UHGV virus genome: UHGV-0289908
Reading direction: 5' to 3' (one strand)
DNA length: 64,000 bases
Origin: a virus
In this document: positions 2,742-25,543 of the stretch, one piece after another
How positions within the stretch are numbered: the stretch's first letter is position 1
Layout: each line of letters opens with the position of its first letter
The notes under the pieces: model-generated
Told to the model about the DNA's origin: nothing
Databases searched by the model: none
Seen by the model: the letters and a program-made list of their open reading frames with translations, nothing else
Position numbers and translations under genes: made by a program

Positions 2742-3479
2742 ATGACTAAAGTGGACAAAGACGAGCTCACCTCTCTCGTTGAAGAAGGATTGACTCAAAA
2801 AGAGATAGCGGAACGACTCGGAGTTTCCCCCATGACAGTTTTAAGGACATGCAAGAAATTGGGATTAAAAACACAAGGAAACAAGAAAAAGATAAAGGAT
2901 TATACTGGGATTCGTTCGGGACGATTGGTCTATCTGCAACCAAGTGGAGTGACACAAGATAGAAGAACATTATGGAAGTGCCAATGCGACTGCGGGAATA
3001 TTGTTTACAAAACAGGGGCAGGGATTGGCTACCATCAATCATGCGGTGAATGTGTTGTTCCTCGAAACAGTCAACCTCTTTATAAAATATGGAGAGGAAT
3101 GCACGCAAGATGTAAATATAGCGGAGTAAAAAGCTACCATAGATATGGAGGGAGAGGAATAAAGGTTTGTTCAGAATGGGAGGATTACGAGACTTTCAAA
3201 ACATGGGCTCTAACAAACGGATATGAAGAAGGGTTAAGCATAGACCGAATTGACAATGGCAAAGGATACCAAGCAGATAACTGTCGTTGGGTGTCACAAA
3301 AACAACAAATGCGGAACACAGATAGCAATAGAAACATTACATACAATGACCAAACAAAATGTTTGATAGAATGGGCAGAAGTGAAAGGAATATCGCCAGA
3401 CACTTTGGCTAAAAGGTTGGATAAATATAATTGGAGCATTGAAAAAGCTCTCAATACTCCAGTAAGAGGAAAGAGGTAG
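2742..3479 (+). CDS. Freestanding HNH-type homing endonuclease with an N-terminal HTH
   Basis: 'YKIWRGMHARC...GGRGIKVCSEWE...GLSIDRIDNGKGYQADNCRWVSQKQQ' resembles the phage HNH family. Lies between nrdF and gmk. Confidence 0.55.
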   Translation: MTKVDKDELTSLVEEGLTQKEIAERLGVSPMTVLRTCKKLGLKTQGNKKKIKDYTGIRSGRLVYLQPSGVTQDRRTLWKCQCDCGNIVYKTGAGIGYHQSCGECVVPRNSQPLYKIWRGMHARCKYSGVKSYHRYGGRGIKVCSEWEDYETFKTWALTNGYEEGLSIDRIDNGKGYQADNCRWVSQKQQMRNTDSNRNITYNDQTKCLIEWAEVKGISPDTLAKRLDKYNWSIEKALNTPVRGKR

Positions 3480-4525: not shown

Positions 4526-5137
4526 ATGAAGTGGTATGAAGCATACTATATTATTGAATGTGGAGGAATGGTTCGTCGTAAAGGATGGGAAGAAGGTGTG
4601 TTCATTCGAATGGCAGATGACCTAGACAATGATGATGACCAATACTTAATTAACGAAAAGCAAGAATACATAGAGCTCACGGAAGAGGAGTTACGGGCAA
4701 CAGATTGGGTCGAATACGACCCCTATGTTCGCTCAGATGAAGAGTTAAACGACAAGGAATATTTAAACCTTGTCAAAGAAAGATGTAGAGCCAAATTAAA
4801 CTATCAACAGAGAATCTTAAAGAATTGTCTTCAAATGTTCGCAGAGAAGCAGAAGGCTCTCCCTGTGTGGGAACTAGGTGCTCAGCAAAAGTACTTCATT
4901 GTTTATTCATACTTAAATGGGCAATATCGAGTAGAAGCAACATGCAAGGAGTATTATCCAAACATTGTTTATTTCTCAAATAAGCAGGCATGCGAGGTGG
5001 CAATTCGTACATATCGCCCCATGCTTGATATTGCTCGCATGTTGGATTGTCAGTTCAACTTACTATGTATACAAGAGTACGACCGAGAAACATTAGTTAA
5101 AATCAATAAAATGATAAGTCGTGTTAAAATATTATAA
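4526..5137 (+). CDS. Hypothetical protein
   Basis: ORF with RBS 'AGGGGGGATGATGGG'. No recognisable motif. Confidence 0.4.
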   Translation: MKWYEAYYIIECGGMVRRKGWEEGVFIRMADDLDNDDDQYLINEKQEYIELTEEELRATDWVEYDPYVRSDEELNDKEYLNLVKERCRAKLNYQQRILKNCLQMFAEKQKALPVWELGAQQKYFIVYSYLNGQYRVEATCKEYYPNIVYFSNKQACEVAIRTYRPMLDIARMLDCQFNLLCIQEYDRETLVKINKMISRVKIL

Positions 5138-5173
5138 AACATATTGACAAGATATGACGGAACATGATATAAT
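5126..5173 (+). promoter_or_regulatory. Promoter module (UP element, TTGACA 5144-5149, 18-bp spacer, TGaTATAAT 5165-5173). The UP element overlaps the 3' end of the upstream ORF.
   Basis: Consensus match. Confidence 0.55.
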
Positions 5174-5204
5174 TCTGTCATGCTAATAAGAGAGGAAGAT
5201 AGAA

Positions 5205-5423
5205 ATGAGAAAACAATACACAGACAAACCACACTTTGTGGCAAAATCATTATACTTATGTCGATTCTTACAGCAACGAGGATTTGAGTTGCAAAAGACA
5301 CGAGTCAACAAGTTCAATCCATTGCATAATGTATACTTATTTAAGGATACGAAAGGGTTGTGTAAAGCGGTTAGCGACTACCGAGCAATGAAGCGAACAA
5401 AACGTGAACAACAGGAGGGGTAA
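5205..5423 (+). CDS. Hypothetical small basic protein (72 aa)
   Basis: Follows the promoter. RBS 'AGAGGAAGATAGAAATG'. Confidence 0.35.
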   Translation: MRKQYTDKPHFVAKSLYLCRFLQQRGFELQKTRVNKFNPLHNVYLFKDTKGLCKAVSDYRAMKRTKREQQEG

Positions 5424-5424
5424 C

Positions 5425-6120
5425 ATGGCAGGGAAATTACGCTACTACTATGGTTGTATGAACAGTCTTAAAAGTGGAACATTACTCACCAAGGCTCATC
5501 AATTCAAAGAAGCAGGGTGTGAGGTAATTTGCCTAAAACCATCATTCGATACCCGAGAAAAAGGGGTTATACATAGTCGTGCTATTTCAAGTAGTCAACC
5601 ATGTTATGTATTCGACAAGAACAAAGACCTGTTCAAGTTTATATACTCAATCATGAGGCAACTATTGCGAGAAGGCAAAGACATCTATCGAGTCGTAGTG
5701 TTTGTGGATGAAGTGTCATTCATCACAAAAGAACAAGTTCAGCAGTTGTGGAAGCTGACAAGATGTCCATATAACGTTAACGTGTTTACTTATGGCTTGA
5801 AGAATACTTATCAGAACACTTTATTTGAATCAGCAGAAGAACTCTTAATAGTAGCGGATACTGTCGAGGAAATCAAAAGTATGTGCAGTGCTTGTACAAA
5901 CAAAGCAACAACTCATTTACGATATGTAAATGACAAGCCTGTGTTTACAGGAGAAGATTGTATCGTTGGAGATGTTGCAGGAGAAGAGCGTTATGTATCT
6001 GTATGTCAAGAATGTTGGCATAGAGTCCATAATGAGTCACATAATGTCGGAATTGATGTCAGTGATGTTGAGTCAAAAACAATAAATGAACCAATTAGTT
6101 CCGCACAAGGAGGAGAATAA
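5425..6120 (+). CDS. tdk: Thymidine kinase with a divergent P-loop and a C-terminal zinc ribbon
   Basis: N-terminal 'YYYGCMNSLKSGTLL' at the P-loop position. The TK fold runs through 'VVFVDEVSF'. C-terminal CxxC...CxxC ('MCSACTNK...VCQECWH'). Start moved to the ATG at 5425 behind 'AGGAGGGG'. Confidence 0.55.
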   Translation: MAGKLRYYYGCMNSLKSGTLLTKAHQFKEAGCEVICLKPSFDTREKGVIHSRAISSSQPCYVFDKNKDLFKFIYSIMRQLLREGKDIYRVVVFVDEVSFITKEQVQQLWKLTRCPYNVNVFTYGLKNTYQNTLFESAEELLIVADTVEEIKSMCSACTNKATTHLRYVNDKPVFTGEDCIVGDVAGEERYVSVCQECWHRVHNESHNVGIDVSDVESKTINEPISSAQGGE

Positions 6121-6121
6121 G

Positions 6122-6379
6122 ATGATATATTTTATTGTTGGATTCGCTTTAATCCTGTTGATTGCTGTTCTTGGTATAGGAGTCATGTGTTTTATTGATT
6201 ATATAGACTATTGTTTATGTTTTCTTCATTCCCACAAAGAGCGAAGTAAACAATGGTATAAAACCCCTACTATGATTAAGGTTTTTATTGTGATAGGAGG
6301 AGTGACCATTTCTGGTATTATTCTGTTGTTTATTCTTTTCTTTTCGTTTTTACTGGGATTTGTGGTATTAGGAGGGTAA
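6122..6379 (+). CDS. Small integral membrane protein (2 TM)
   Basis: Highly hydrophobic. RBS 'AAGGAGGAGAATAAGATG'. Confidence 0.4.
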   Translation: MIYFIVGFALILLIAVLGIGVMCFIDYIDYCLCFLHSHKERSKQWYKTPTMIKVFIVIGGVTISGIILLFILFFSFLLGFVVLGG

Positions 6380-6406
6380 CTAACATTAGCAAGATGTATA
6401 TTAAGT

Positions 6407-6436
6407 AGACTGGATTCGTCCAGTCTTTTCTTTTTC
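6407..6436 (+). terminator. Rho-independent terminator: AGACTGGA-ttcg-TCCAGTCT followed by TTTCTTTTT
   Basis: Perfect 8-bp stem with a tetraloop and a T-run. Confidence 0.75.
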
Positions 6437-6446
6437 CTACAAAATA

Positions 6447-6502
6447 TTCGCTAAAATATTATAAAATGTATTGACTATTGTGTCGAAGCATGATATCATT
6501 AG
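6447..6502 (+). promoter_or_regulatory. Promoter module, copy A of a perfect 56-bp direct repeat (TTGACT 6471-6476, TGaTATCAT 6491-6499)
   Basis: Identical to 8282..8337. Confidence 0.65.
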
Positions 6503-6531
6503 TATGTACTTAAGATAACGGAGGTAATCGA

Positions 6532-6645
6532 ATGAAAACATTAATTAAACTTGCAAAAGAATTACGTAAAGGATTAAAAGGATTAAAAGAGTTTAGCAAA
6601 CTTGACGTTACGGTTGGTTATGTTACAGGGTCTAAACATTTATAG
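6532..6645 (+). CDS. Small basic peptide (37 aa) leading the paralogue array
   Basis: 'MKTLIKLAKELRKGLKGLKEF...'. RBS 'GGAGGTAATCGAATG'. Confidence 0.3.
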   Translation: MKTLIKLAKELRKGLKGLKEFSKLDVTVGYVTGSKHL

Positions 6646-6656
6646 GAGGTGAAGTT

Positions 6657-6956
6657 ATGAGATATGAAACTGGAACGAGATTGAGACGAGTAGTAAGAGG
6701 ACAGGAATTTCATCTTGAAGGACTTGATACCTATGTTGTTGTAGGTCAATTAGACAATGGTTTTATTGTGCAAAGACCGCAAAGAGAAGAAGGGAGGGGT
6801 TGGATACTTCTGTCAAAAGAGCCCACAATAGCCGAAGAAGCAATCGCTATAGGGTTGATAACCAAGGAAGAAGCTCGTGAACGAAGATTTTGGTACTATC
6901 CAAACGACGCAGACGGATTTGAATTGGCAGGCAGTGTGATTCAGTGGATAAAATAG
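6657..6956 (+). CDS. Tandem paralogue 1 of 5 (about 100 aa, C-terminal IQWIK), function unknown
   Basis: Shares 'RFW(Y/W)YP' with paralogue 3 and a C-terminal (Q/E)WI(E/K/D) with all five. RBS 'TAGGAGGTGAAGTTATG'. Confidence 0.6.
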   Translation: MRYETGTRLRRVVRGQEFHLEGLDTYVVVGQLDNGFIVQRPQREEGRGWILLSKEPTIAEEAIAIGLITKEEARERRFWYYPNDADGFELAGSVIQWIK

Positions 6957-6969
6957 GAGGAGATAGAAG

Positions 6970-7281
6970 ATGTATTCGATTGGAACTAGAGTAGAAATTG
7001 TGGACGTAAATGACAACTATCGTATGAGAGGATTGGAGATAGGAGACCGAGGATGGGTAATACTCGAACCACGTGAACATGAAGTGGCGGTTATGTTTGA
7101 CAAAGAACTCTCATATGGATTAAGTTTTTCTCCTCATCGAAGCGACAATGCCCAAATTGCACAGATGATTGATAATGGAATTATGATGGATGGAGAACTT
7201 ATTCTGAACAGAAGCATTCATGTAGACTTTAATTGTATTAAGCCATGTAGGTTAGCACAGGCAATTCAATGGATAGAATAG
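6970..7281 (+). CDS. Tandem paralogue 2 of 5 (C-terminal IQWIE)
   Basis: Shares 'HEVAVMFDKE' with paralogue 4. The stop is embedded in 'TGGATAAAATAGGAGG'. Confidence 0.6.
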   Translation: MYSIGTRVEIVDVNDNYRMRGLEIGDRGWVILEPREHEVAVMFDKELSYGLSFSPHRSDNAQIAQMIDNGIMMDGELILNRSIHVDFNCIKPCRLAQAIQWIE

Positions 7282-7291
7282 GAGGAATAAT

Positions 7292-7606
7292 ATGAATGAA
7301 TCAATGGAGTTGAAAGTTGGAGACATTGTTGAATTCGTGAGTCGAGCAGATGATTCATGTGGAGAATGTGGAGGAGATAGAGGTAAGGTTGTCCGTGTTA
7401 GATATGATGGAATATGGGTATATCATCTAACAATGCCATGCGACACCGCATGGTCAATATATGACAGAGATGACTTTATAGCGGAGTGTCTTATCTCAGA
7501 AGGGGTCATTACAAATCACGAAGCACGTCAAAATCGTTTTTGGTGGTATCCTTTTAGTGCAGTAACAAAAGTGGCAAATGCTTCAAAAATTGAATGGATA
7601 GAATAG
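7292..7606 (+). CDS. Tandem paralogue 3 of 5 (C-terminal IEWIE), Cys-rich
   Basis: 'CGECGG', 'RFWWYP'. Confidence 0.6.
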   Translation: MNESMELKVGDIVEFVSRADDSCGECGGDRGKVVRVRYDGIWVYHLTMPCDTAWSIYDRDDFIAECLISEGVITNHEARQNRFWWYPFSAVTKVANASKIEWIE

Positions 7607-7616
7607 GAGGGGTAAC

Positions 7617-7928
7617 ATGTCATTTTCTAGCTTTAATCGAGGAGAACGAGTAAGAATAATCGCCCCCCAAAGAACGAAAGCCTTAGCCGTGGGGGATAAG
7701 GGATATATCATCAGAAATTCCAGTTTTGGACACTACGATGAAGTGGCGGTTATGTTTGACAAAGAATTCAGAGAGGGATTAAATTTCGTTGCGGGAGAAA
7801 ACAGTGATGAAGAGATAATCCGTCGTGGACTTGTGTATGCAGGTGAACATGTACAGAATCGTTCAGCATGGGTTCGAGTAGAAGACCTTGAACTCTGCTC
7901 AGACCACGAGATTCAGTGGATAGAATAG
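7617..7928 (+). CDS. Tandem paralogue 4 of 5 (C-terminal IQWIE)
   Basis: 'DEVAVMFDKEF'. Confidence 0.6.
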   Translation: MSFSSFNRGERVRIIAPQRTKALAVGDKGYIIRNSSFGHYDEVAVMFDKEFREGLNFVAGENSDEEIIRRGLVYAGEHVQNRSAWVRVEDLELCSDHEIQWIE

Positions 7929-7938
7929 GAGGTGCTAT

Positions 7939-8271
7939 ATGGTTGACAGTATGAATGGATTGTGCATAGGTGATAGAGTTATCATTTCTGGCAGTGGAGG
8001 AGATTTTGGAACTCCTTGTTCATGGATGGGGGAACGTGGAAGAATAATCTTTTTCGACACCGATGACGACTCTGCGGTGGTATTTTTTGACTCAAATATT
8101 GGACGCTGGGGATTGGTTGAATTAGATGAACCATACACCAGAGTCGAGCGTATTCAAGGTGGGCTAACAATGGGATGGTTTACTGAAAACGAACTAAAAA
8201 AAGAAAGATGTTCTTGGATAAGTGTTGAAAACCTATCACTGTTCTGCACACCAATTGAATGGATTGACTAA
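7939..8271 (+). CDS. Tandem paralogue 5 of 5 (C-terminal IEWID)
   Basis: N-terminal 'GDRVIISGSGG' beta-strand-like motif shared with the others. Confidence 0.55.
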   Translation: MVDSMNGLCIGDRVIISGSGGDFGTPCSWMGERGRIIFFDTDDDSAVVFFDSNIGRWGLVELDEPYTRVERIQGGLTMGWFTENELKKERCSWISVENLSLFCTPIEWID

Positions 8272-8281
8272 TTTTCACTCT

Positions 8282-8337
8282 TTCGCTAAAATATTATAAA
8301 ATGTATTGACTATTGTGTCGAAGCATGATATCATTAG
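8282..8337 (+). promoter_or_regulatory. Promoter module, copy B of the perfect 56-bp direct repeat
   Basis: Identical to 6447..6502. Confidence 0.65.
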
Positions 8338-8435
8338 GGTGTCAGAAAGAGGTGGAGAATGATTTCGAAGGTTGATTCAAAACAATGACAAAAGACCTAG
8401 CAAAATGAAATGATTTTAAAGAGGAGAGATGAATA

Positions 8436-8771
8436 ATGATTAAAATTTTATACGCTATTAACAATGCAAATGATGATGAACGAGCATTAATTAACTTGGA
8501 TACCAAGGAAATCATTTTTAAGGGAAGCAATCGACGAGACAACATGTTTCATCAAATCAAAACACATGTTGAGTCAATGCAATATTTTGGATTACCATTT
8601 GATTTACAACAAATGCGTATGAATCCAGACCATGAATTATATGAGGTAATTGGTTTTTGTCCTAAAAAGGAATTCAATAACGACGAATTAGTTTTTACAG
8701 CAGGTGCTTGGGGAGTTCCCGTAAATTCTTACACGAAAGTTCAAATGGGACAATTAGCAAGAGCTTGTTAA
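8436..8771 (+). CDS. Hypothetical protein
   Basis: ORF with RBS 'AGAGGAGAGATGAATAATG'. Confidence 0.45.
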   Translation: MIKILYAINNANDDERALINLDTKEIIFKGSNRRDNMFHQIKTHVESMQYFGLPFDLQQMRMNPDHELYEVIGFCPKKEFNNDELVFTAGAWGVPVNSYTKVQMGQLARAC

Positions 8772-8807
8772 AATACATAATGCTTTACTAATATACTTAC
8801 AACAAAA

Positions 8808-8830
8808 AGACACTGGGGTTGCCAGTGTCT
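8808..8830. other. Perfect 9-bp hairpin AGACACTGG-ggttg-CCAGTGTCT. The U-tract is only on the minus-strand side.
   Basis: Seen in sequence. Would terminate antisense transcription. Confidence 0.35.
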
Positions 8831-8974
8831 AATATATGAGATTAAAACTATGGAGCAAGGCGTAGGTAAAAGGAGCTTAAACCTACCAAGGGCTTACCCT
8901 GCTCTAGTATTATATACAGTTTTAAAATAAATATTCATTAAAAAGTAAACAAAAGTAAACAAAGGAGAATTAAC

Positions 8975-9172
8975 ATGAATAAACACACTTGCAAAGATTG
9001 CACAGAACGTAAGGTAGGGTGTCACTCAACCTGTGCAAAATACGTGGTCAAACGAGTTATTCAAACTTATAAGAATCAAAAGAAATGCAATGAATATCAA
9101 TACAGCTTTGACCCAAATGGATATGAAAGAAACTCTCGAAAGTTAAGAAAGCAGTTGAGTGGACATTGTTAA
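8975..9172 (+). CDS. Small Cys-rich protein (CxxC, HSTC)
   Basis: 'CKDCTERKVGCHSTCAKY'. RBS 'AAAGGAGAATTAACATG'. Confidence 0.4.
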   Translation: MNKHTCKDCTERKVGCHSTCAKYVVKRVIQTYKNQKKCNEYQYSFDPNGYERNSRKLRKQLSGHC

Positions 9173-9282
9173 GCCGATTTACAACCTAAAAGGTTAAAAC
9201 TTTTGGGGAGTACGGTGCTATGATGTGTCCTGCTCCCAACCAATGTGACGCAATATTATCATGAATCGACAATAACGTTTGT

Positions 9283-9318
9283 AAAGGACTAGCTTGAGTT
9301 AGTCCTTTTATTTTTTCG
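9283..9318 (+). terminator. Rho-independent terminator (AAGGACTA / TAGTCCTT stem followed by TTTATTTTTT)
   Basis: Stem and T-run. Confidence 0.65.
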
Positions 9319-9332
9319 ACGTTTTTTAGCAA

Positions 9333-9379
9333 AAAGATTATAAAATGTATTGACTATATATGTAAAAACATGCTATAAT
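9333..9379 (+). promoter_or_regulatory. Promoter module (TTGACT 9350-9355, 18-bp spacer, TGcTATAAT)
   Basis: Consensus. Confidence 0.6.
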
Positions 9380-9406
9380 TAGGTCAAGTTAAAGGAGGAT
9401 TGAAAA

Positions 9407-9670
9407 ATGAAATATCGAATCAAAACCATGAGTAAACGAAAGCCTATTGAAGCCGTTCAGTACAACATGGAGAACCTTAATGCCATTATAAAACTGATTG
9501 GTAGTTCAAAGGTGCAATGGCAACCACGGGCAGAGGAGCTGAGCGTCATCTCTTTAGGGAGAGTTATGAAAGTAGACCAAGGAAGCTATGTAGTTAGGCG
9601 ACACGATGGAGAGGTGTTCGTAATTGGCAAACAGGCTTTCGAGAAAGCCTACGAAAGAGTAGAACGATAG
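9407..9670 (+). CDS. Hypothetical protein (87 aa)
   Basis: RBS 'AAAGGAGGATTGAAAAATG'. Confidence 0.45.
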   Translation: MKYRIKTMSKRKPIEAVQYNMENLNAIIKLIGSSKVQWQPRAEELSVISLGRVMKVDQGSYVVRRHDGEVFVIGKQAFEKAYERVER

Positions 9671-9756
9671 GAGAGGTTAATAACGAGTGCAACTTTGTTG
9701 GTATCGACCGTCGACACACCCATTGTTTTAATCATTAGGAATTGGAGGAGCTGAAT

Positions 9757-10188
9757 ATGGGAATTGTAATACCGTTGATAGGGTTGTTGTTTATCTTGTG
9801 TTTCTCGTGTGCTTATGTGGGATATGACGTAGCAGATAAGAGAGCAAAACAAGCAGAACAACGAGCCTTGGAGTACAGCTACAAGCTAGTAGAGTATCAG
9901 AGTAAACTTGCAACAGAAAGAATGCGTTACGAAGCGGAACGAAAGCAACGAACACAAGATATCGAAGACTATAATAAGCTAGTGAACGAATACAATAAGC
10001 TAACTCGTTTATATCGCAATATGAACAATAAACAAGGAGGAGACGCAAATGTGCAATCCCCTGTTATTAAGGAAATGTTGCGTTTTGCAATGACACAGGC
10101 TCATCCAGACGCAGGAAAGGAGAAGACTCCAGACCGCTTTATTAAGTACCGAGAAGAGTATGAAAGACTTTACAAAGGGAGACGATAA
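9757..10188 (+). CDS. Membrane-anchored J-domain-like protein (N-terminal TM, coiled coil, C-terminal HPD motif)
   Basis: 'GIVIPLIGLLFILCF' TM segment. Central KR/E-rich coiled coil. 'AMTQAHPDAGKEKTPDRFIKYREEYERLY' resembles DnaJ helix II-III including HPD. Confidence 0.4.
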   Translation: MGIVIPLIGLLFILCFSCAYVGYDVADKRAKQAEQRALEYSYKLVEYQSKLATERMRYEAERKQRTQDIEDYNKLVNEYNKLTRLYRNMNNKQGGDANVQSPVIKEMLRFAMTQAHPDAGKEKTPDRFIKYREEYERLYKGRR

Positions 10189-21373: not shown

Positions 21374-23944
21374 ATGAAGAATATTAATGGATTAACAAAC
21401 GCAGAAGTGGAATCGCAACGCATGCTATTTGGAGATAATAAGATTGCAGAAGCAGAACCAAAGAAGTTTTGGACAGAATGGTTGGCAAACTTTGAAGACC
21501 CAATGTTAAAATTATTAGTGGGAATTACAGTGTTAATGGCGGTAATCGCTGCCTTTGGATTCACAGAATGGTTTGAAGTCATTGGTATCTTAATCTCTGT
21601 GACAATCGTAACACTTATTTCAACAAAGACTGCAATGGTTTCAGATGGAGAATACCGCAAGTTAAAAGAAGAGAACTCTCATGAGACTTGTAAGGTATGC
21701 CGTAATGGACAAATTGAAATCATTGACACTAACGACTTGGTGGTTGGAGACTTTGTTTTAGTTCAATCGGGAGAGAAGATTCATGCAGATGGATTCTTAT
21801 ATGATGGGAACATTAAGGTAGACAACTCAGCGTTAAACGGTGAGTCAGATGAAGTTAAAAAGATTCCAACAGACTTCTATGACTTTGCAAATGGTGAAAT
21901 GACAGACTCTCACATGATGTTACGTGGAGCTTTAGTTGCTGACGGGGAAGGTGTTATGAAAGTAGCCAAGGTTGGAGCAAACACTATGATGGGACGTATG
22001 GCAGAAGAGATGACAGAAGAAGAGGTTGACTCTCCATTAAAAGTTAAGTTAACACACTTAGCAGAGCAAATCTCTAAATTCGGTTATATCGGAGCAGTAG
22101 TTATTGGATTAGCTATCTTAGGTAACTCAATCTTAAGTAACGGGCTACAGTCTTGGTTGGCACAACCATTCGCATTAATGGCTAAAGACGTGTTAAATGC
22201 CTTATTAGTATCAGTAACAATCGTAGTTATGGCAGTACCAGAGGGATTACCTTTAATGATTGCAATTGTATTAATGCAAAACACTTCAAAGATGTTGCAA
22301 CACAATGTATTAGTGCGTAAGGCAGTAGGTATTGAAACAGCGGGGTCATTAAACATCTTATTCTCAGATAAAACAGGAACTATCACTAAAGGTCAGTTAG
22401 AAGTAGTAAACTTCATTGACAAGGACGGAAACCAGTTTGATTCAATCACTGGATTAGACGAAGGTATGCAGAAGTTAGTTGCCACATCATTAAAGATTAA
22501 CAACTCGGCTATGATTGTAGACGGTGAAATCACAGGTGGGAACATGACAGACCGCGCTTTATTACAATATGTTAAAGATATTGAGCATGAAGATTTAAAG
22601 GTAGTAAAAGTGGAAACATTCAACTCTGCTAAGAAGTTCATGGCAACTCAATGTGAGACAGCAATGGGTCGTACATTAACGCTATACAAAGGTGCAGTTG
22701 AACGAGTATTAGACAAATGTATCAATATTACAGATGAAGAACGCAACAAAATCAACACTATTGTTGACGAAATGGCTAACAATGCAATCCGTGTACTTGC
22801 TATCAGTTATGCTCATGGAGAGTTAGTAGCAGGTGAATTATCACCAGAGATGAGCTTATTAGGGGTAATTGGTATCCGTGACGATGTTCGTCCAGAAGCT
22901 AAAACAGCCATTGCAGAAGTACAAAATGCAGGTGTTCAAGTAGTCATGATTACTGGAGACCGCAAAGAAACAGCAGTAGCAATCGCAAAAGACGCAGGAT
23001 TAATTACCAAAGACACAGATGTGGTATTAACATCAAGTGAATTACAGGACTTATCAGATGAAGAAGTAAAAGCAATCATTCCAAACTTAAAGGTAGTTGC
23101 TCGTGCATTGCCAACAGACAAGTCACGTATGGTTCGTTTATCACAGGAGCTAGGACTTGTAGCAGGGATGACAGGTGACGGAACTAACGACAGTCCTGCC
23201 TTAAAACGAGCAGACGTAGGGTTTGCCATGGGGTCTGGAACAGATGTAGCGAAAGAAGCAGGAGACATCATCATCTTAGATGACAACTTCAAGTCAATCG
23301 CAGACTCGGTGTTATATGGTCGTACTATCTATAACAATATCTTAAAGTTTATCAAGTTCCAATTAACAATCAACGTAGTAGCAGTATTTATTTGTGCAGT
23401 GTGCCCATTCTTCGGTATCCAAGAGCCATTAAACATTATCCAGTTGCTAATCCTCAATTTAGTAATGGACAGCTTAGGGGCTATGGCATTAGGTGGAGAA
23501 CCTGCATTAAAAGAGTACATGAATGAGAAGCCAAAGTCTCGTACACAATCAATCGTAGATAAAGCTATGATGATTCAAGTAGGTGCTATGGGAGCATTCA
23601 TGGCAGTATTAAGTTTATTATTCTTATTTGTTCCTATGTTCAAAGACATGTTTGGTCAAGCACATTTAACAGGATACTTCGCACTATTCATGTTGATGTC
23701 TGTATTCAATGGATTCAATGTGCGTAGCATGGATTCAAATGTATTCAAGGGATTAGATGAAAACAAAACATTCGCTAAGGTTATGGTTGCTATCGTTGCC
23801 ATCTTAGTAGTGTTAACACTCATTGGAGGAGAATTCTTATCAGTAACCCCAATGAACTTAGTGCAATGGGTTGTGGTGTCAGTAATGGCAGTAACAGTAA
23901 TTCCATTCGGAAGTTTCTTAAAAGGATTAATTTCGTCAAAATAA
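21374..23944 (+). CDS. P-type cation-transporting ATPase (type IIA, Ca2+-ATPase-like)
   Basis: 'DKTGTIT' phosphorylation site, 'MITGDRKETA', 'GDGTNDSPALKRADVGFAMG', an N-terminal cation-ATPase-N segment and about 8-10 TM helices. Confidence 0.85.
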   Translation: MKNINGLTNAEVESQRMLFGDNKIAEAEPKKFWTEWLANFEDPMLKLLVGITVLMAVIAAFGFTEWFEVIGILISVTIVTLISTKTAMVSDGEYRKLKEENSHETCKVCRNGQIEIIDTNDLVVGDFVLVQSGEKIHADGFLYDGNIKVDNSALNGESDEVKKIPTDFYDFANGEMTDSHMMLRGALVADGEGVMKVAKVGANTMMGRMAEEMTEEEVDSPLKVKLTHLAEQISKFGYIGAVVIGLAILGNSILSNGLQSWLAQPFALMAKDVLNALLVSVTIVVMAVPEGLPLMIAIVLMQNTSKMLQHNVLVRKAVGIETAGSLNILFSDKTGTITKGQLEVVNFIDKDGNQFDSITGLDEGMQKLVATSLKINNSAMIVDGEITGGNMTDRALLQYVKDIEHEDLKVVKVETFNSAKKFMATQCETAMGRTLTLYKGAVERVLDKCINITDEERNKINTIVDEMANNAIRVLAISYAHGELVAGELSPEMSLLGVIGIRDDVRPEAKTAIAEVQNAGVQVVMITGDRKETAVAIAKDAGLITKDTDVVLTSSELQDLSDEEVKAIIPNLKVVARALPTDKSRMVRLSQELGLVAGMTGDGTNDSPALKRADVGFAMGSGTDVAKEAGDIIILDDNFKSIADSVLYGRTIYNNILKFIKFQLTINVVAVFICAVCPFFGIQEPLNIIQLLILNLVMDSLGAMALGGEPALKEYMNEKPKSRTQSIVDKAMMIQVGAMGAFMAVLSLLFLFVPMFKDMFGQAHLTGYFALFMLMSVFNGFNVRSMDSNVFKGLDENKTFAKVMVAIVAILVVLTLIGGEFLSVTPMNLVQWVVVSVMAVTVIPFGSFLKGLISSK

Positions 23945-23985: not shown

Positions 23986-24097
23986 TTAAATGCACCTAGG
24001 AAATAGTTTTTGACAGTCAGTACCTACCATGGTAGGTATTGGCAATCAAGAACTGATTCAAAAAGAGAGAGTGAGTTCTTAATACTTGTTAGGAGAG

Positions 24098-25543
24098 ATG
24101 AACATGAATTATAACCACAGAAGTTTTATTTGGGATTGTGACGCTTACAAGCTAGGACATATGTGCCAGTACCCAAGCGACACAGAATATGTTTACTCAG
24201 TATTACAATTACGCAGTGACCGATACTTCACTGAGACACCGATTGTTGGGTTACAATACCTAATTAAAGAGTACTTAATGCAACCAATTTTAAAAGGTGA
24301 TGTCGAAGGGCTAATTGCAGAAGCAAAAGCAATGGGAATCTATCACCCAGATACTGAAACAAAGTTGATGGCTTTAGTAGACTTAGGATACTTACCATTA
24401 GAGATTAAGGCATTACCAGAGGGTAGTGTTGTGGGAATGCCAAATGCAGTGTGTACAATTCAAAATACCGTTGCAGGATTCCACTGGGTAGTAGGGTTCG
24501 TAGAAACATTATTGTTAAAATGGTGGTCAGCCTTAGCAACAGGAGCTTGTAGCTTAAAGTATCGTCGCATTGTTGATAAGTACTTTGCAGAAACATCAGA
24601 CAACGACTTCTTACGACCATTCGCTGTTCATGATTTTGGTTCACGTGGGGCAATGACTCCAGAGGGAGCAGCTTTTACAGGAATGGCTCACGCATTAAAC
24701 TTCGATGGTTCTGACACAATCGTATCAGCTCCATTAATTCGCAAGTTCTACAATGCAGAAGGAATGGTAATCTGCTCAGTGCCTGCTAGCGAACACTCTG
24801 TAATGTGTTCATTTGGACGAGAAGATGAAATTAAAGCATTTGAGAACATGTTAGATATTTACCCTACAGGGATTGTTTCAATCGTTTCAGATACATATAA
24901 TTGGTACAATGTTATGGATAACATGACGCTACAACTAAAAGACCGCATTATGGCTCGTGATGGTAAAGTGGTATTTCGACCAGACAGTGGTAATCCATAT
25001 CACATCATTTGTGGCGAGTACACTGATAAGACATTGAGAAAGTATTGTGAAGAAAGCTGTCAAACTCATGGCGGAATCCATATGTTAGATAAAATATTTG
25101 GTCACACAGTCAACTCAAAAGGATACAAAGTATTGGATTCACATGTAGGACTAATCTACGGGGATGGAATGTATTTAGAACGTTTCGAGAAGACGTTAGA
25201 AACATTAAAAGACCTAGGATATAGTGCGGAAAACTTAGTAATTGGGGTAGGTGGAATCTTACGCAATCACACTCGAGATACTTTAGGAGCGGCATTCAAA
25301 GCGACTTGCGTGTGTCGTGATGGCAAATGGATTCCTATTATGAAAGACCCTATCACTGACCAAGGGAAGAAATCATATCAAGGCTTTGTATCCGTCATCA
25401 AAGAAGATGGACAATATAAAACGGTCGAAGGTGGACATCCACAAGACTTATTACAAACAGTGTTTAAGGATGGACAATTAGTAAAAGACTTCACTTGGCA
25501 GGAAGTTAAAGACCGATACAATTCAGAGTTAGGAGACCGATAA
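24098..25543 (+). CDS. nadV: Nicotinamide phosphoribosyltransferase family protein (NAMPT/NadV-like; candidate Namat of the phage NAD+ reconstitution pathway 1)
   Basis: Blocks 'LPLEIKALPEG', 'HDFGSRG', 'NFDGSDT', 'PASEHSV', 'VSDTYN', 'RPDSGNP', 'NSKGYKVL', 'IYGDG', 'DLLQTVFKDGQL' align one-for-one with NAMPT signature blocks. Confidence 0.85.
   Translation: MNMNYNHRSFIWDCDAYKLGHMCQYPSDTEYVYSVLQLRSDRYFTETPIVGLQYLIKEYLMQPILKGDVEGLIAEAKAMGIYHPDTETKLMALVDLGYLPLEIKALPEGSVVGMPNAVCTIQNTVAGFHWVVGFVETLLLKWWSALATGACSLKYRRIVDKYFAETSDNDFLRPFAVHDFGSRGAMTPEGAAFTGMAHALNFDGSDTIVSAPLIRKFYNAEGMVICSVPASEHSVMCSFGREDEIKAFENMLDIYPTGIVSIVSDTYNWYNVMDNMTLQLKDRIMARDGKVVFRPDSGNPYHIICGEYTDKTLRKYCEESCQTHGGIHMLDKIFGHTVNSKGYKVLDSHVGLIYGDGMYLERFEKTLETLKDLGYSAENLVIGVGGILRNHTRDTLGAAFKATCVCRDGKWIPIMKDPITDQGKKSYQGFVSVIKEDGQYKTVEGGHPQDLLQTVFKDGQLVKDFTWQEVKDRYNSELGDR

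Follow-up and report, generated by a model that had tools for sequence, protein, structure and literature searches.

Families of small early proteins are known from phages. The T4-like phages encode an LSm-like early family whose functions are largely unknown (PMC12152347), and in Bacillus phage SPbeta the master repressor MrpR has as its operator a repeated element located at about 10 early promoters (PMC10516654). Amplification through short homologies has been reported for tifA in T4 (PMC9391042) and, driven by SegB, in T6 (PMC13096335). The locus analyzed here is a tandem array of five genes (P1 to P5), preceded by a leader open reading frame (ORF), in the virus genome UHGV-0289908; the whole 64,000-nt stretch of this genome is called the window, and all coordinates refer to it and to its + strand. 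The fold class of the encoded proteins, small early phage protein families and copy-number change at short homologies (T4 and T6; PMC9391042, PMC13096335) were already known. An invariant C-terminal tail, an array of chained cistrons, and a natural series of deletion, fusion and frameshifts with mapped breakpoints are new. The array may be an early or middle operon of host-interaction proteins that combine a variable recognition body with a constant docking tail; this reading is considered about evenly balanced in probability, because the function was read from the sequence.

The array and its protein family

ORF analysis found the five tandem genes of about 100 amino acids (aa) and the 37-aa leader where the original prediction had placed them, all on the + strand (Table 1). 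The window was identical over the entire array to a 154,609-bp human-gut contig (L043) assembled at k=127, so the array layout is not an assembly artefact. P1 to P5 were acidic, with isoelectric points (pI) of 4.3–5.5. The protein sequence of the leader was 100% conserved in clade A, which comprises the window and its close relatives, and it had a 34-aa counterpart in clades B and C.

After the leader and at all four internal junctions, a TAG stop codon lay inside AGGAGG, and the gaps from stop to start were 10–13 nt. The same TAGGAGG overlap of stop codon and ribosome-binding site (RBS) was found in 3 of the 50 other long + strand ORFs examined in the window. A shared stop/RBS junction had been predicted for the array; it was exact at three junctions (the 16-nt repeat TGGATAGAATAGGAGG, which encodes W-I-E, the stop and the next RBS) and had one mismatch at the P1/P2 junction (TGGATAAAATAGGAGG). 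The overlap was present at all five junctions and is, at the sequence level, consistent with the translational coupling of the cistrons that had been suggested.

Pairwise identity among P1 to P5 was 20–32%. The proteins were grouped into three subtypes (P1/P3, P2/P4 and P5), and comparison of the subtypes by hhalign gave probabilities of 97.4–98.5% over the full length (E 1e-11 to 2e-15); the five are therefore genuine paralogues, as had been proposed. The motifs said to be common to all of them were confined to subtypes: RFW(Y/W)YP occurred in P1 and P3 only, EVAVMFDKE occurred in P2 and P4 only, and P5 had neither. All five closed with (Q/E)WI(E/K/D), but the strict WIE ending was not universal (QWIK, QWIE, EWIE, QWIE and EWID in P1 to P5).

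None of the five proteins reached a curated threshold in the libraries searched, in agreement with the earlier statement that no known domain was recognized. Pfam SH3_12 (PF18129) scored 21.3 bits with P4 and 12.8 bits with P2, below its gathering threshold of 26.2 bits, and had no match to P1, P3 and P5; Pfam DUF4314 (PF14192) scored 15 bits with P2, below its threshold of 27, and did not match the other four. No KOW family was found in Pfam at E up to 1, and the PDB sequence profile gave only Spt5 KOW3 (E 0.34); the KOW likeness of the paralogues is structural only. In PHROGs, the best match, P4 with phrog_7146 (E 0.0024, 19 bits), was not significant, P2 matched phrog_7871 at E 0.079, and P1, P3 and P5 had no match. 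NCBIfam, PADLOC and the PDB sequence profile gave nothing meaningful for the paralogues; no defence protein in PADLOC and no anti-defence family in Pfam, such as Tad2-like, matched any of them. In BFVD, Foldseek found only uncharacterised small proteins of phages, all as weak matches (TM up to 0.59), and a search of Rfam at E up to 1 with positions 5000–10000 returned none.

Searches for relatives gave a similar picture. Among GenBank phages, no match was found by megablast with the 3-kb region or by tblastn with P4 against 50,697 records, and a search of IMG/VR with P3 found no relative. The exact 16-nt junction had eight single matches in IMG/VR; as candidate family loci these were rejected as chance matches, since they do not encode any family member. 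Among GTDB species genomes, the one match to P5 was spurious (33 residues, in a Phycisphaerales metagenome-assembled genome), and no prophage was found. Word-indexed searching across 5.8 billion proteins yielded 12 sequences, which were orthologues of the five and, in addition, a diverged P3-like protein. When 1.84 billion representative proteins were searched exhaustively with a profile, about 20 full-length members of 89–110 aa emerged, beneath which only generic multi-repeat SH3-like proteins were ranked. The family is taxonomically restricted and undescribed, and it was absent from every library searched here.

AlphaFold2 predicted a small beta-barrel core with helices inserted between the strands; the predicted local distance difference test (pLDDT) was 75.5 for P4 and 86.4 for P3, for which the alignment was deeper. 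The predicted core is a five-stranded, strongly bent antiparallel beta-barrel, as defines the SH3-like class, and in these models the paralogues are SH3/KOW-like barrels with a helical insert. The shared small beta-barrel anticipated for the five proteins was supported by the models of P3 and P4 and by the profile comparison of the subtypes. The fold class specifies no particular function. Sequence matches to the SH3-like superfold (Xrn1 PF18129, NusG/Spt5 KOW, Tudor and PsaE) were all below curated cut-offs, and the paralogues differ from it in their interstrand helical insert and their unique invariant C-terminal tail, and in being acidic, stand-alone and phage-encoded. YorP (PDB 2HEQ), a small SH3-like orphan of SPbeta and the best hmmsearch match in the SPbeta early region, had no significant relationship to the paralogues (E 0.2; hhalign probability 12%). 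Both YorP and the LSm-like family of T4 (GoF, MotB.1 and Frd.2; PMC12152347) are single-copy, lack the I-x-W-I-(D/E) tail and form no chained array.

The C-terminal tail, evolutionary rate and proposed function

In an alignment of 28 sequences (33% mean column identity), the sole invariant residues past Met1 were I(-5) and W(-3); I(-2) was nearly invariant, and the chain nearly always closed with D or E. Among the 519 ORFs of 30 aa or more in the window, this ending was confined to the five array genes. The final gene of every array kept the tail too, though no RBS follows there, and the tail codons varied synonymously (ATT/ATC, ATA/ATT) while the residues were fixed. Clade C encodes a 97-aa Cys-rich protein (CPIKCVCG...CDDCG; 4463–4756 of L027) immediately upstream of the array terminator and promoter. 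It ends in RIEWIE, and hhalign against the family aligned just the 8 residues at this end. Conservation of the tail merely through the RNA-level stop/RBS junction was rejected: because the tail is kept without an RBS, changes its codons synonymously and is found on the unrelated Cys-rich protein, conservation acts on it as protein. The pLDDT of the tail was below 50 in the models of P3 and P4, and we infer that I-x-W-I-(D/E)-COOH would serve every member as a short, exposed docking motif.

Segregating sites were counted among the clade A alleles. The numbers of synonymous and nonsynonymous sites were 9 and 20 in P1, 4 and 8 in P2, 2 and 13 in P3, and 15 and 7 in P4; they were 2 and 0 in the leader, 11 and 5 in the thymidine kinase gene, and 4 and 1 in the 111-aa gene downstream of the array. 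P1 to P3 together had 15 synonymous and 41 nonsynonymous sites, compared with 17 and 6 in the flanking genes (Fisher p = 1.5e-4). The pairwise ratio of nonsynonymous to synonymous polymorphism (pN/pS) was 0.4 to >1 for P1 to P3, 0.08–0.12 for the flanks and about 0.1 for intact P4. P1 to P3 are thus under relaxed or diversifying selection, which the data do not separate; intact P4 is under strong constraint, although this member is also the one most frequently destroyed.

A host-interaction operon would work as follows. A sigma-A-type promoter would drive expression of the basic 37-aa peptide and then of the five acidic paralogues, with the cistrons chained via stop codons set in the next RBS (TAG-GAGG). 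The fast-changing barrel and its insert would recognize variable targets, in a takeover or counter-defence role, and the constant tail would dock all paralogues on one common partner. Array members are born and lost by unequal homologous recombination at short internal repeats and by frameshifts. In favour of this reading are the operon layout, the shared fold, the tail, the restriction of the family to one locus in related phages, its turnover and raised nonsynonymous rate, the acidic charge of the paralogues, and nearby genes that resemble counter-defence genes (the weakly Tad2-like gene and NAMPT in the window; Macro-domain, RtcB and RNA-ligase genes in relatives).

Several points weigh against this reading. 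None of the proteins matched any characterised anti-defence or takeover protein in the libraries searched, which include some anti-defence families in Pfam. Relaxed constraint, and not diversifying selection, could account for the raised nonsynonymous rate, and the 13:2 ratio of P3 was not significantly above the neutral expectation. The low pLDDT of the tail supports its exposure only indirectly. The assignment of the promoter class as early rests on the position amid nucleotide-metabolism and replication genes and on the analogy with SPbeta. Finally, stoichiometric coupled expression would fit a hetero-oligomeric complex equally well.

Such a complex is the main rival, although we regard it as unlikely. 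The five paralogues would form a single assembly in the style of an Sm/LSm ring or of tandem KOW domains, with a core role in transcription, RNA handling or replication, and coupling would ensure equal amounts. This would agree with the chaining of every cistron by stop/RBS overlap, with a fold class that includes the KOW domains of NusG/Spt5 and the SH3-like domain of Xrn1, and with the description of LSm-like early proteins in T4-like phages (PMC12152347); the conserved tail could mediate the subunit contacts. The copy-number variation tolerated among relatives (see below) weakens this explanation.

An extension of the host-interaction reading concerns the partner of the tail. The bacterial sliding-clamp-binding motif QL[SD]LF has hydrophobic residues at i, i+2 and i+3 and a conserved Gln. 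The tail has the same hydrophobic spacing, with I/W/I for L/L/F and without the Gln, which makes it a loose match. The tail might be a portable docking peptide, found as well on the Cys-rich protein of clade C, that tethers the diversifying barrels to one host hub, for example the sliding clamp, so that the array would act as an adaptor system, and the recurrent loss of P4 by deletion, fusion and three frameshifts, despite its strong purifying selection when intact, might reflect hosts that sense P4; as judged from the sequence, this is rather improbable.

Promoter copies, copy number and breakpoints

The perfect 56-bp direct repeat reported on both sides of the array was confirmed, and 0 of 100 shuffles of the window matched it. 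Each copy contains the module TAAAATATTATAAAATGTATTGAC, which was found 11 times in the window (up to 3 mismatches), always on the + strand and always followed by a 17–18-nt spacer and a TG-extended -10. The module therefore represents a promoter class of the phage, and the array promoter is predicted to be sigma-A-type, with the phage's own conserved upstream module. The promoter modules precede nucleotide-metabolism and replication operons, and the AT-rich segment 5' of the -35 was much better conserved than a generic UP element. Like SPBRE of SPbeta (PMC10516654), the module is a conserved element in many early-region promoters of an SPbeta-type genome, and by this likeness to SPBRE/MrpR it may be an operator. 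However, the module spans the region upstream of the -35 and includes it, whereas the SPBRE promoters inspected share sequence from the -35 to the -10; with up to 2 mismatches allowed, the module was not found in the 50-kb early region of SPbeta, and it does not match the 15-bp SPBRE motif that MrpR binds.

Among the modules, spacer and -10 were identical only in the pair flanking the array. In three close relatives (L002, L011 and L012) the downstream copy differed by 5 substitutions and 1 indel, and in a more distant clade the two promoter copies were 82% identical. The spacer and -10 of copy 1 in clade A resembled those of copy 2 and not those of copy 1 in clade B, which argues for repeated gene conversion between the promoter copies. 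In other clades, copy 2 was located inside the array and was followed by one or two more family members, just 5' of the 111-aa gene homologue. Alignment showed that the window retains, downstream of copy 2, a non-coding remnant of about 80 nt from the 3' end of a further member, of which intact versions exist in clades B, C and D as well as in the relative L035. As judged from this alignment, the segment is the deletion remnant of a sixth member, and copy 2 was originally array-internal. The sequence comparison indicates that the two 56-bp sequences are copies of a promoter that gene conversion keeps alike; the view that they bound the array was not upheld, given the 11 modules in the window and the array-internal copy 2 of other clades.

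The intrinsic terminator upstream of copy 1 ends the preceding operon, which contains the thymidine kinase gene and the gene of a 97-aa membrane protein. On the + strand no terminator was found inside the array, and the next strong one is at 9283, so transcripts from promoter 1 should span the leader, P1 to P5, promoter 2 and the 111-aa gene. The sequence suggests that this last gene is probably reached also by read-through from promoter 1.

In all relatives that were fetched with the locus, the array occupied the same site, 3' of the thymidine kinase gene and 5' of the homologue of the 111-aa gene, after a leader of 34–37 aa; a search of JGI metagenomes with the 111-aa gene added one relative, L035. 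Arrays of 3, 4, 5 or 6 members were seen overall. Most strains of clade A had five members, clade B (L021–L024) had 3 + 1, clade C (L027) had 4 + 2, and clade D (L029) had at least four. A deletion in clade A removed 322 bp, exactly P4, by a crossover within the 16-nt junction repeat, and was seen in a scaffold of 154 kb and again, independently, in a Logan contig. In a P2::P4 hybrid, the C-terminus of P2, all of P3 and the N-terminus of P4 were gone; the crossover was located in 24 nt of identity encoding VAVMFDKE, within a direct repeat shared by P2 and P4. The 90%-identity cluster of this hybrid contained a second 99-aa sequence from another sample (by cluster membership only). Three independent frameshifts in P4 were found in L002, L006 and L008 at short G/C homopolymers (7661–7666, C6; 7690–7694, G5; and the region of 7928), and one in P5 was found in L001 at an A7 run. 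The homopolymer frameshifts may be real mutations, phase-variation-like switches or sequencing errors.

The copy-number variation expected among relatives is therefore real (3 to 6 members, the P4 deletion and the P2::P4 hybrid), but the 56-bp repeats were not found to drive it: every change maps to array-internal repeats or homopolymers. A cassette model, in which recombination between the 56-bp repeats excises, amplifies or contracts the whole array, is distinctly improbable. The repeats are perfect and direct, the promoter copies exchange sequence by concerted evolution and are fully identical in the window sublineage, and counter-defence loci are known to amplify through short homologies in T4 and T6 (PMC9391042, PMC13096335). 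Nevertheless, the first 24–30 nt of the repeat are the promoter consensus found 11 times in the window, copy 2 is array-internal in other clades, all observed copy-number changes sit at internal repeats, and neither loss nor duplication of the whole array was found in any contig, four scaffolds of at least about 150 kb among them. A path from upstream flank through repeat to downstream flank is present in the short scaffold L009, but this junction is ambiguous, because the scaffold was probably assembled at k=55 and has an N-gap and a repeat as long as k. A degenerate pattern search of the JGI metagenomes matched neither the intact nor the excised junction and is uninformative.

Short-read assemblies break at the 56-bp repeat (contig ends of L003–L008), and one 154.5-kb scaffold ends there exactly. 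Isolated array-only contigs of about 1.84 kb were obtained from several samples and could be mistaken for small circular elements. The interpretation of these contigs (L004–L008) as excised circles was rejected, because a k=31 graph gives 1779 + 2 × 30 = 1839 nt for the unique segment flanked by two copies of a 56-bp repeat; the contigs are assembly products.

The array resembles the T4 tifA (PMC9391042) and T6 SegB-driven (PMC13096335) amplifications in that the copy number of an accessory locus changes via short homologies. The T4 and T6 cases, however, are recent amplifications of identical units under laboratory selection, whereas the array consists of ancient units diverged to 20–32% identity, and its natural variants show losses and one fusion only. 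In T4 and T6 the loci are counter-defence loci; the array is only a candidate for such a role.

That the paralogues are decaying duplicates without current function, persisting inside a transcribed region, is highly improbable: the high nonsynonymous fraction of P1 to P3, the recurrent frameshifts and deletions and the dead remnant of a further member in the window would fit decay, but in four clades only 20–50% identical to one another the ORFs have kept a constant length, the invariant tail and two conserved glycines are kept in all, the tail residues stay fixed while their codons change synonymously, intact P4 has a pN/pS of about 0.1, and AlphaFold2 predicts a common fold with confidence.

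Table 1. Coordinates of the array, its regulatory sequences and neighbouring features in the window
Feature	Position	Strand	Remarks
Intrinsic terminator	6407–6434	+	stem-loop AGACTGGATTCGTCCAGTCT, then T-run; kept in clades A and C
Promoter copy 1	6447–6502	+	module TAAAATATTATAAAATGTATTGAC at 6452–6475; -35 TTGACT at 6471–6476; 17-nt spacer with TG; -10 TATCAT at 6494–6499
Leader ORF	6532–6645	+	37 aa, basic (pI 10.1); first cistron of the operon; stop overlaps the P1 RBS (TAGGAGG)
P1	6657–6956	+	99 aa; RFWYY subtype; tail IQWIK
P1/P2 junction	6945–6960	+	one-mismatch variant
P2	6970–7281	+	103 aa; EVAVMFDKE subtype; tail IQWIE
P3	7292–7606	+	104 aa; RFWWY subtype; tail IEWIE; fastest-evolving member
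P4	7617–7928	+	103 aa; EVAVMFDKE subtype; tail IQWIE; often lost or frameshifted in relatives
P5	7939–8271	+	110 aa; third subtype (GWF...CSWIS); tail IEWID; no RBS behind the stop
16-nt junction repeat	7270–7285, 7595–7610, 7917–7932	+	exact copies
Internal direct repeat	7079–7127 with 7738–7786	+	88% over 49 nt, 24–29 nt exact; codes for EVAVMFDKE in P2 and P4
Promoter copy 2	8282–8337	+	identical to copy 1; 11 nt 3' of the P5 stop, no terminator between
Remnant of a further member	8354–8435	+	non-coding
111-aa gene	8436–8771	+	3' of promoter copy 2; conserved at 99% within clade A, 75–80% in other clades
Promoter modules	3867, 5125, 6452, 8287, 9331, 10561, 11721, 14203, 27281, 41451, 44350	+	each followed by N17–18 and TGnTATAAT
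HTH/TnsD-like protein	2742–3479		245 aa
Protein with Tad2-like match	4526–5137		203 aa
P-type cation ATPase	21374–23944		856 aa
NAMPT	24086–25543

Genomic setting and significance

The window encodes both ribonucleotide reductase subunits, guanylate kinase, thymidine kinase, DNA ligase, a DnaB-type helicase, RecJ, RecD2, a Pol III alpha-type polymerase, NAMPT and a P-type ATPase, and its G+C content is 37.8%. The polymerase was 41% identical to YorL of SPbeta and its relatives, which indicates a large SPbeta-like phage (about 154 kb, human gut).

Accessory content around the array is variable and rich in counter-defence-like genes. The N-terminus of a 203-aa protein had a weak Thoeris Tad2-like match (E 3.5e-4; 21.5 bits against a cut-off of 25). 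A helix-turn-helix (HTH)/TnsD-like gene follows the gene of the small ribonucleotide reductase subunit in the window and is also found in L003 and L043; in L001/L002 two small ORFs (58 and 55–66 aa; 2516–2889) occupy its place, which points to an insertion/replacement polymorphism. The large reductase subunit of L002 contains an intein that bears a LAGLIDADG domain. L002 (8215–10425) and L029 (1923–4144) carry, just 3' of the 111-aa gene, an RtcB and RNA-ligase pair, an RNA-repair cargo that the window (about 8800–9400) does not have, and Macro-domain, RtcB and RNA-ligase genes were found at the corresponding position in relatives. The P-type cation ATPase, an unusual phage cargo, adjoins the nicotinamide phosphoribosyltransferase (NAMPT).

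Small orphan early proteins hold most of the unexplored tools of phages for host manipulation. The locus is tractable, with one fold in 3 to 6 diverged copies, a defined tail usable as bait or as a mutation target, natural knock-outs and fusions in gut metagenomes, and breakpoints that show how the array contracts. If the tail docks on a host hub, it would be a new interaction module and would provide a sequence signature with which further effectors could be found; otherwise, the array is a well-documented case of birth-and-death evolution in a lineage-specific phage gene family.

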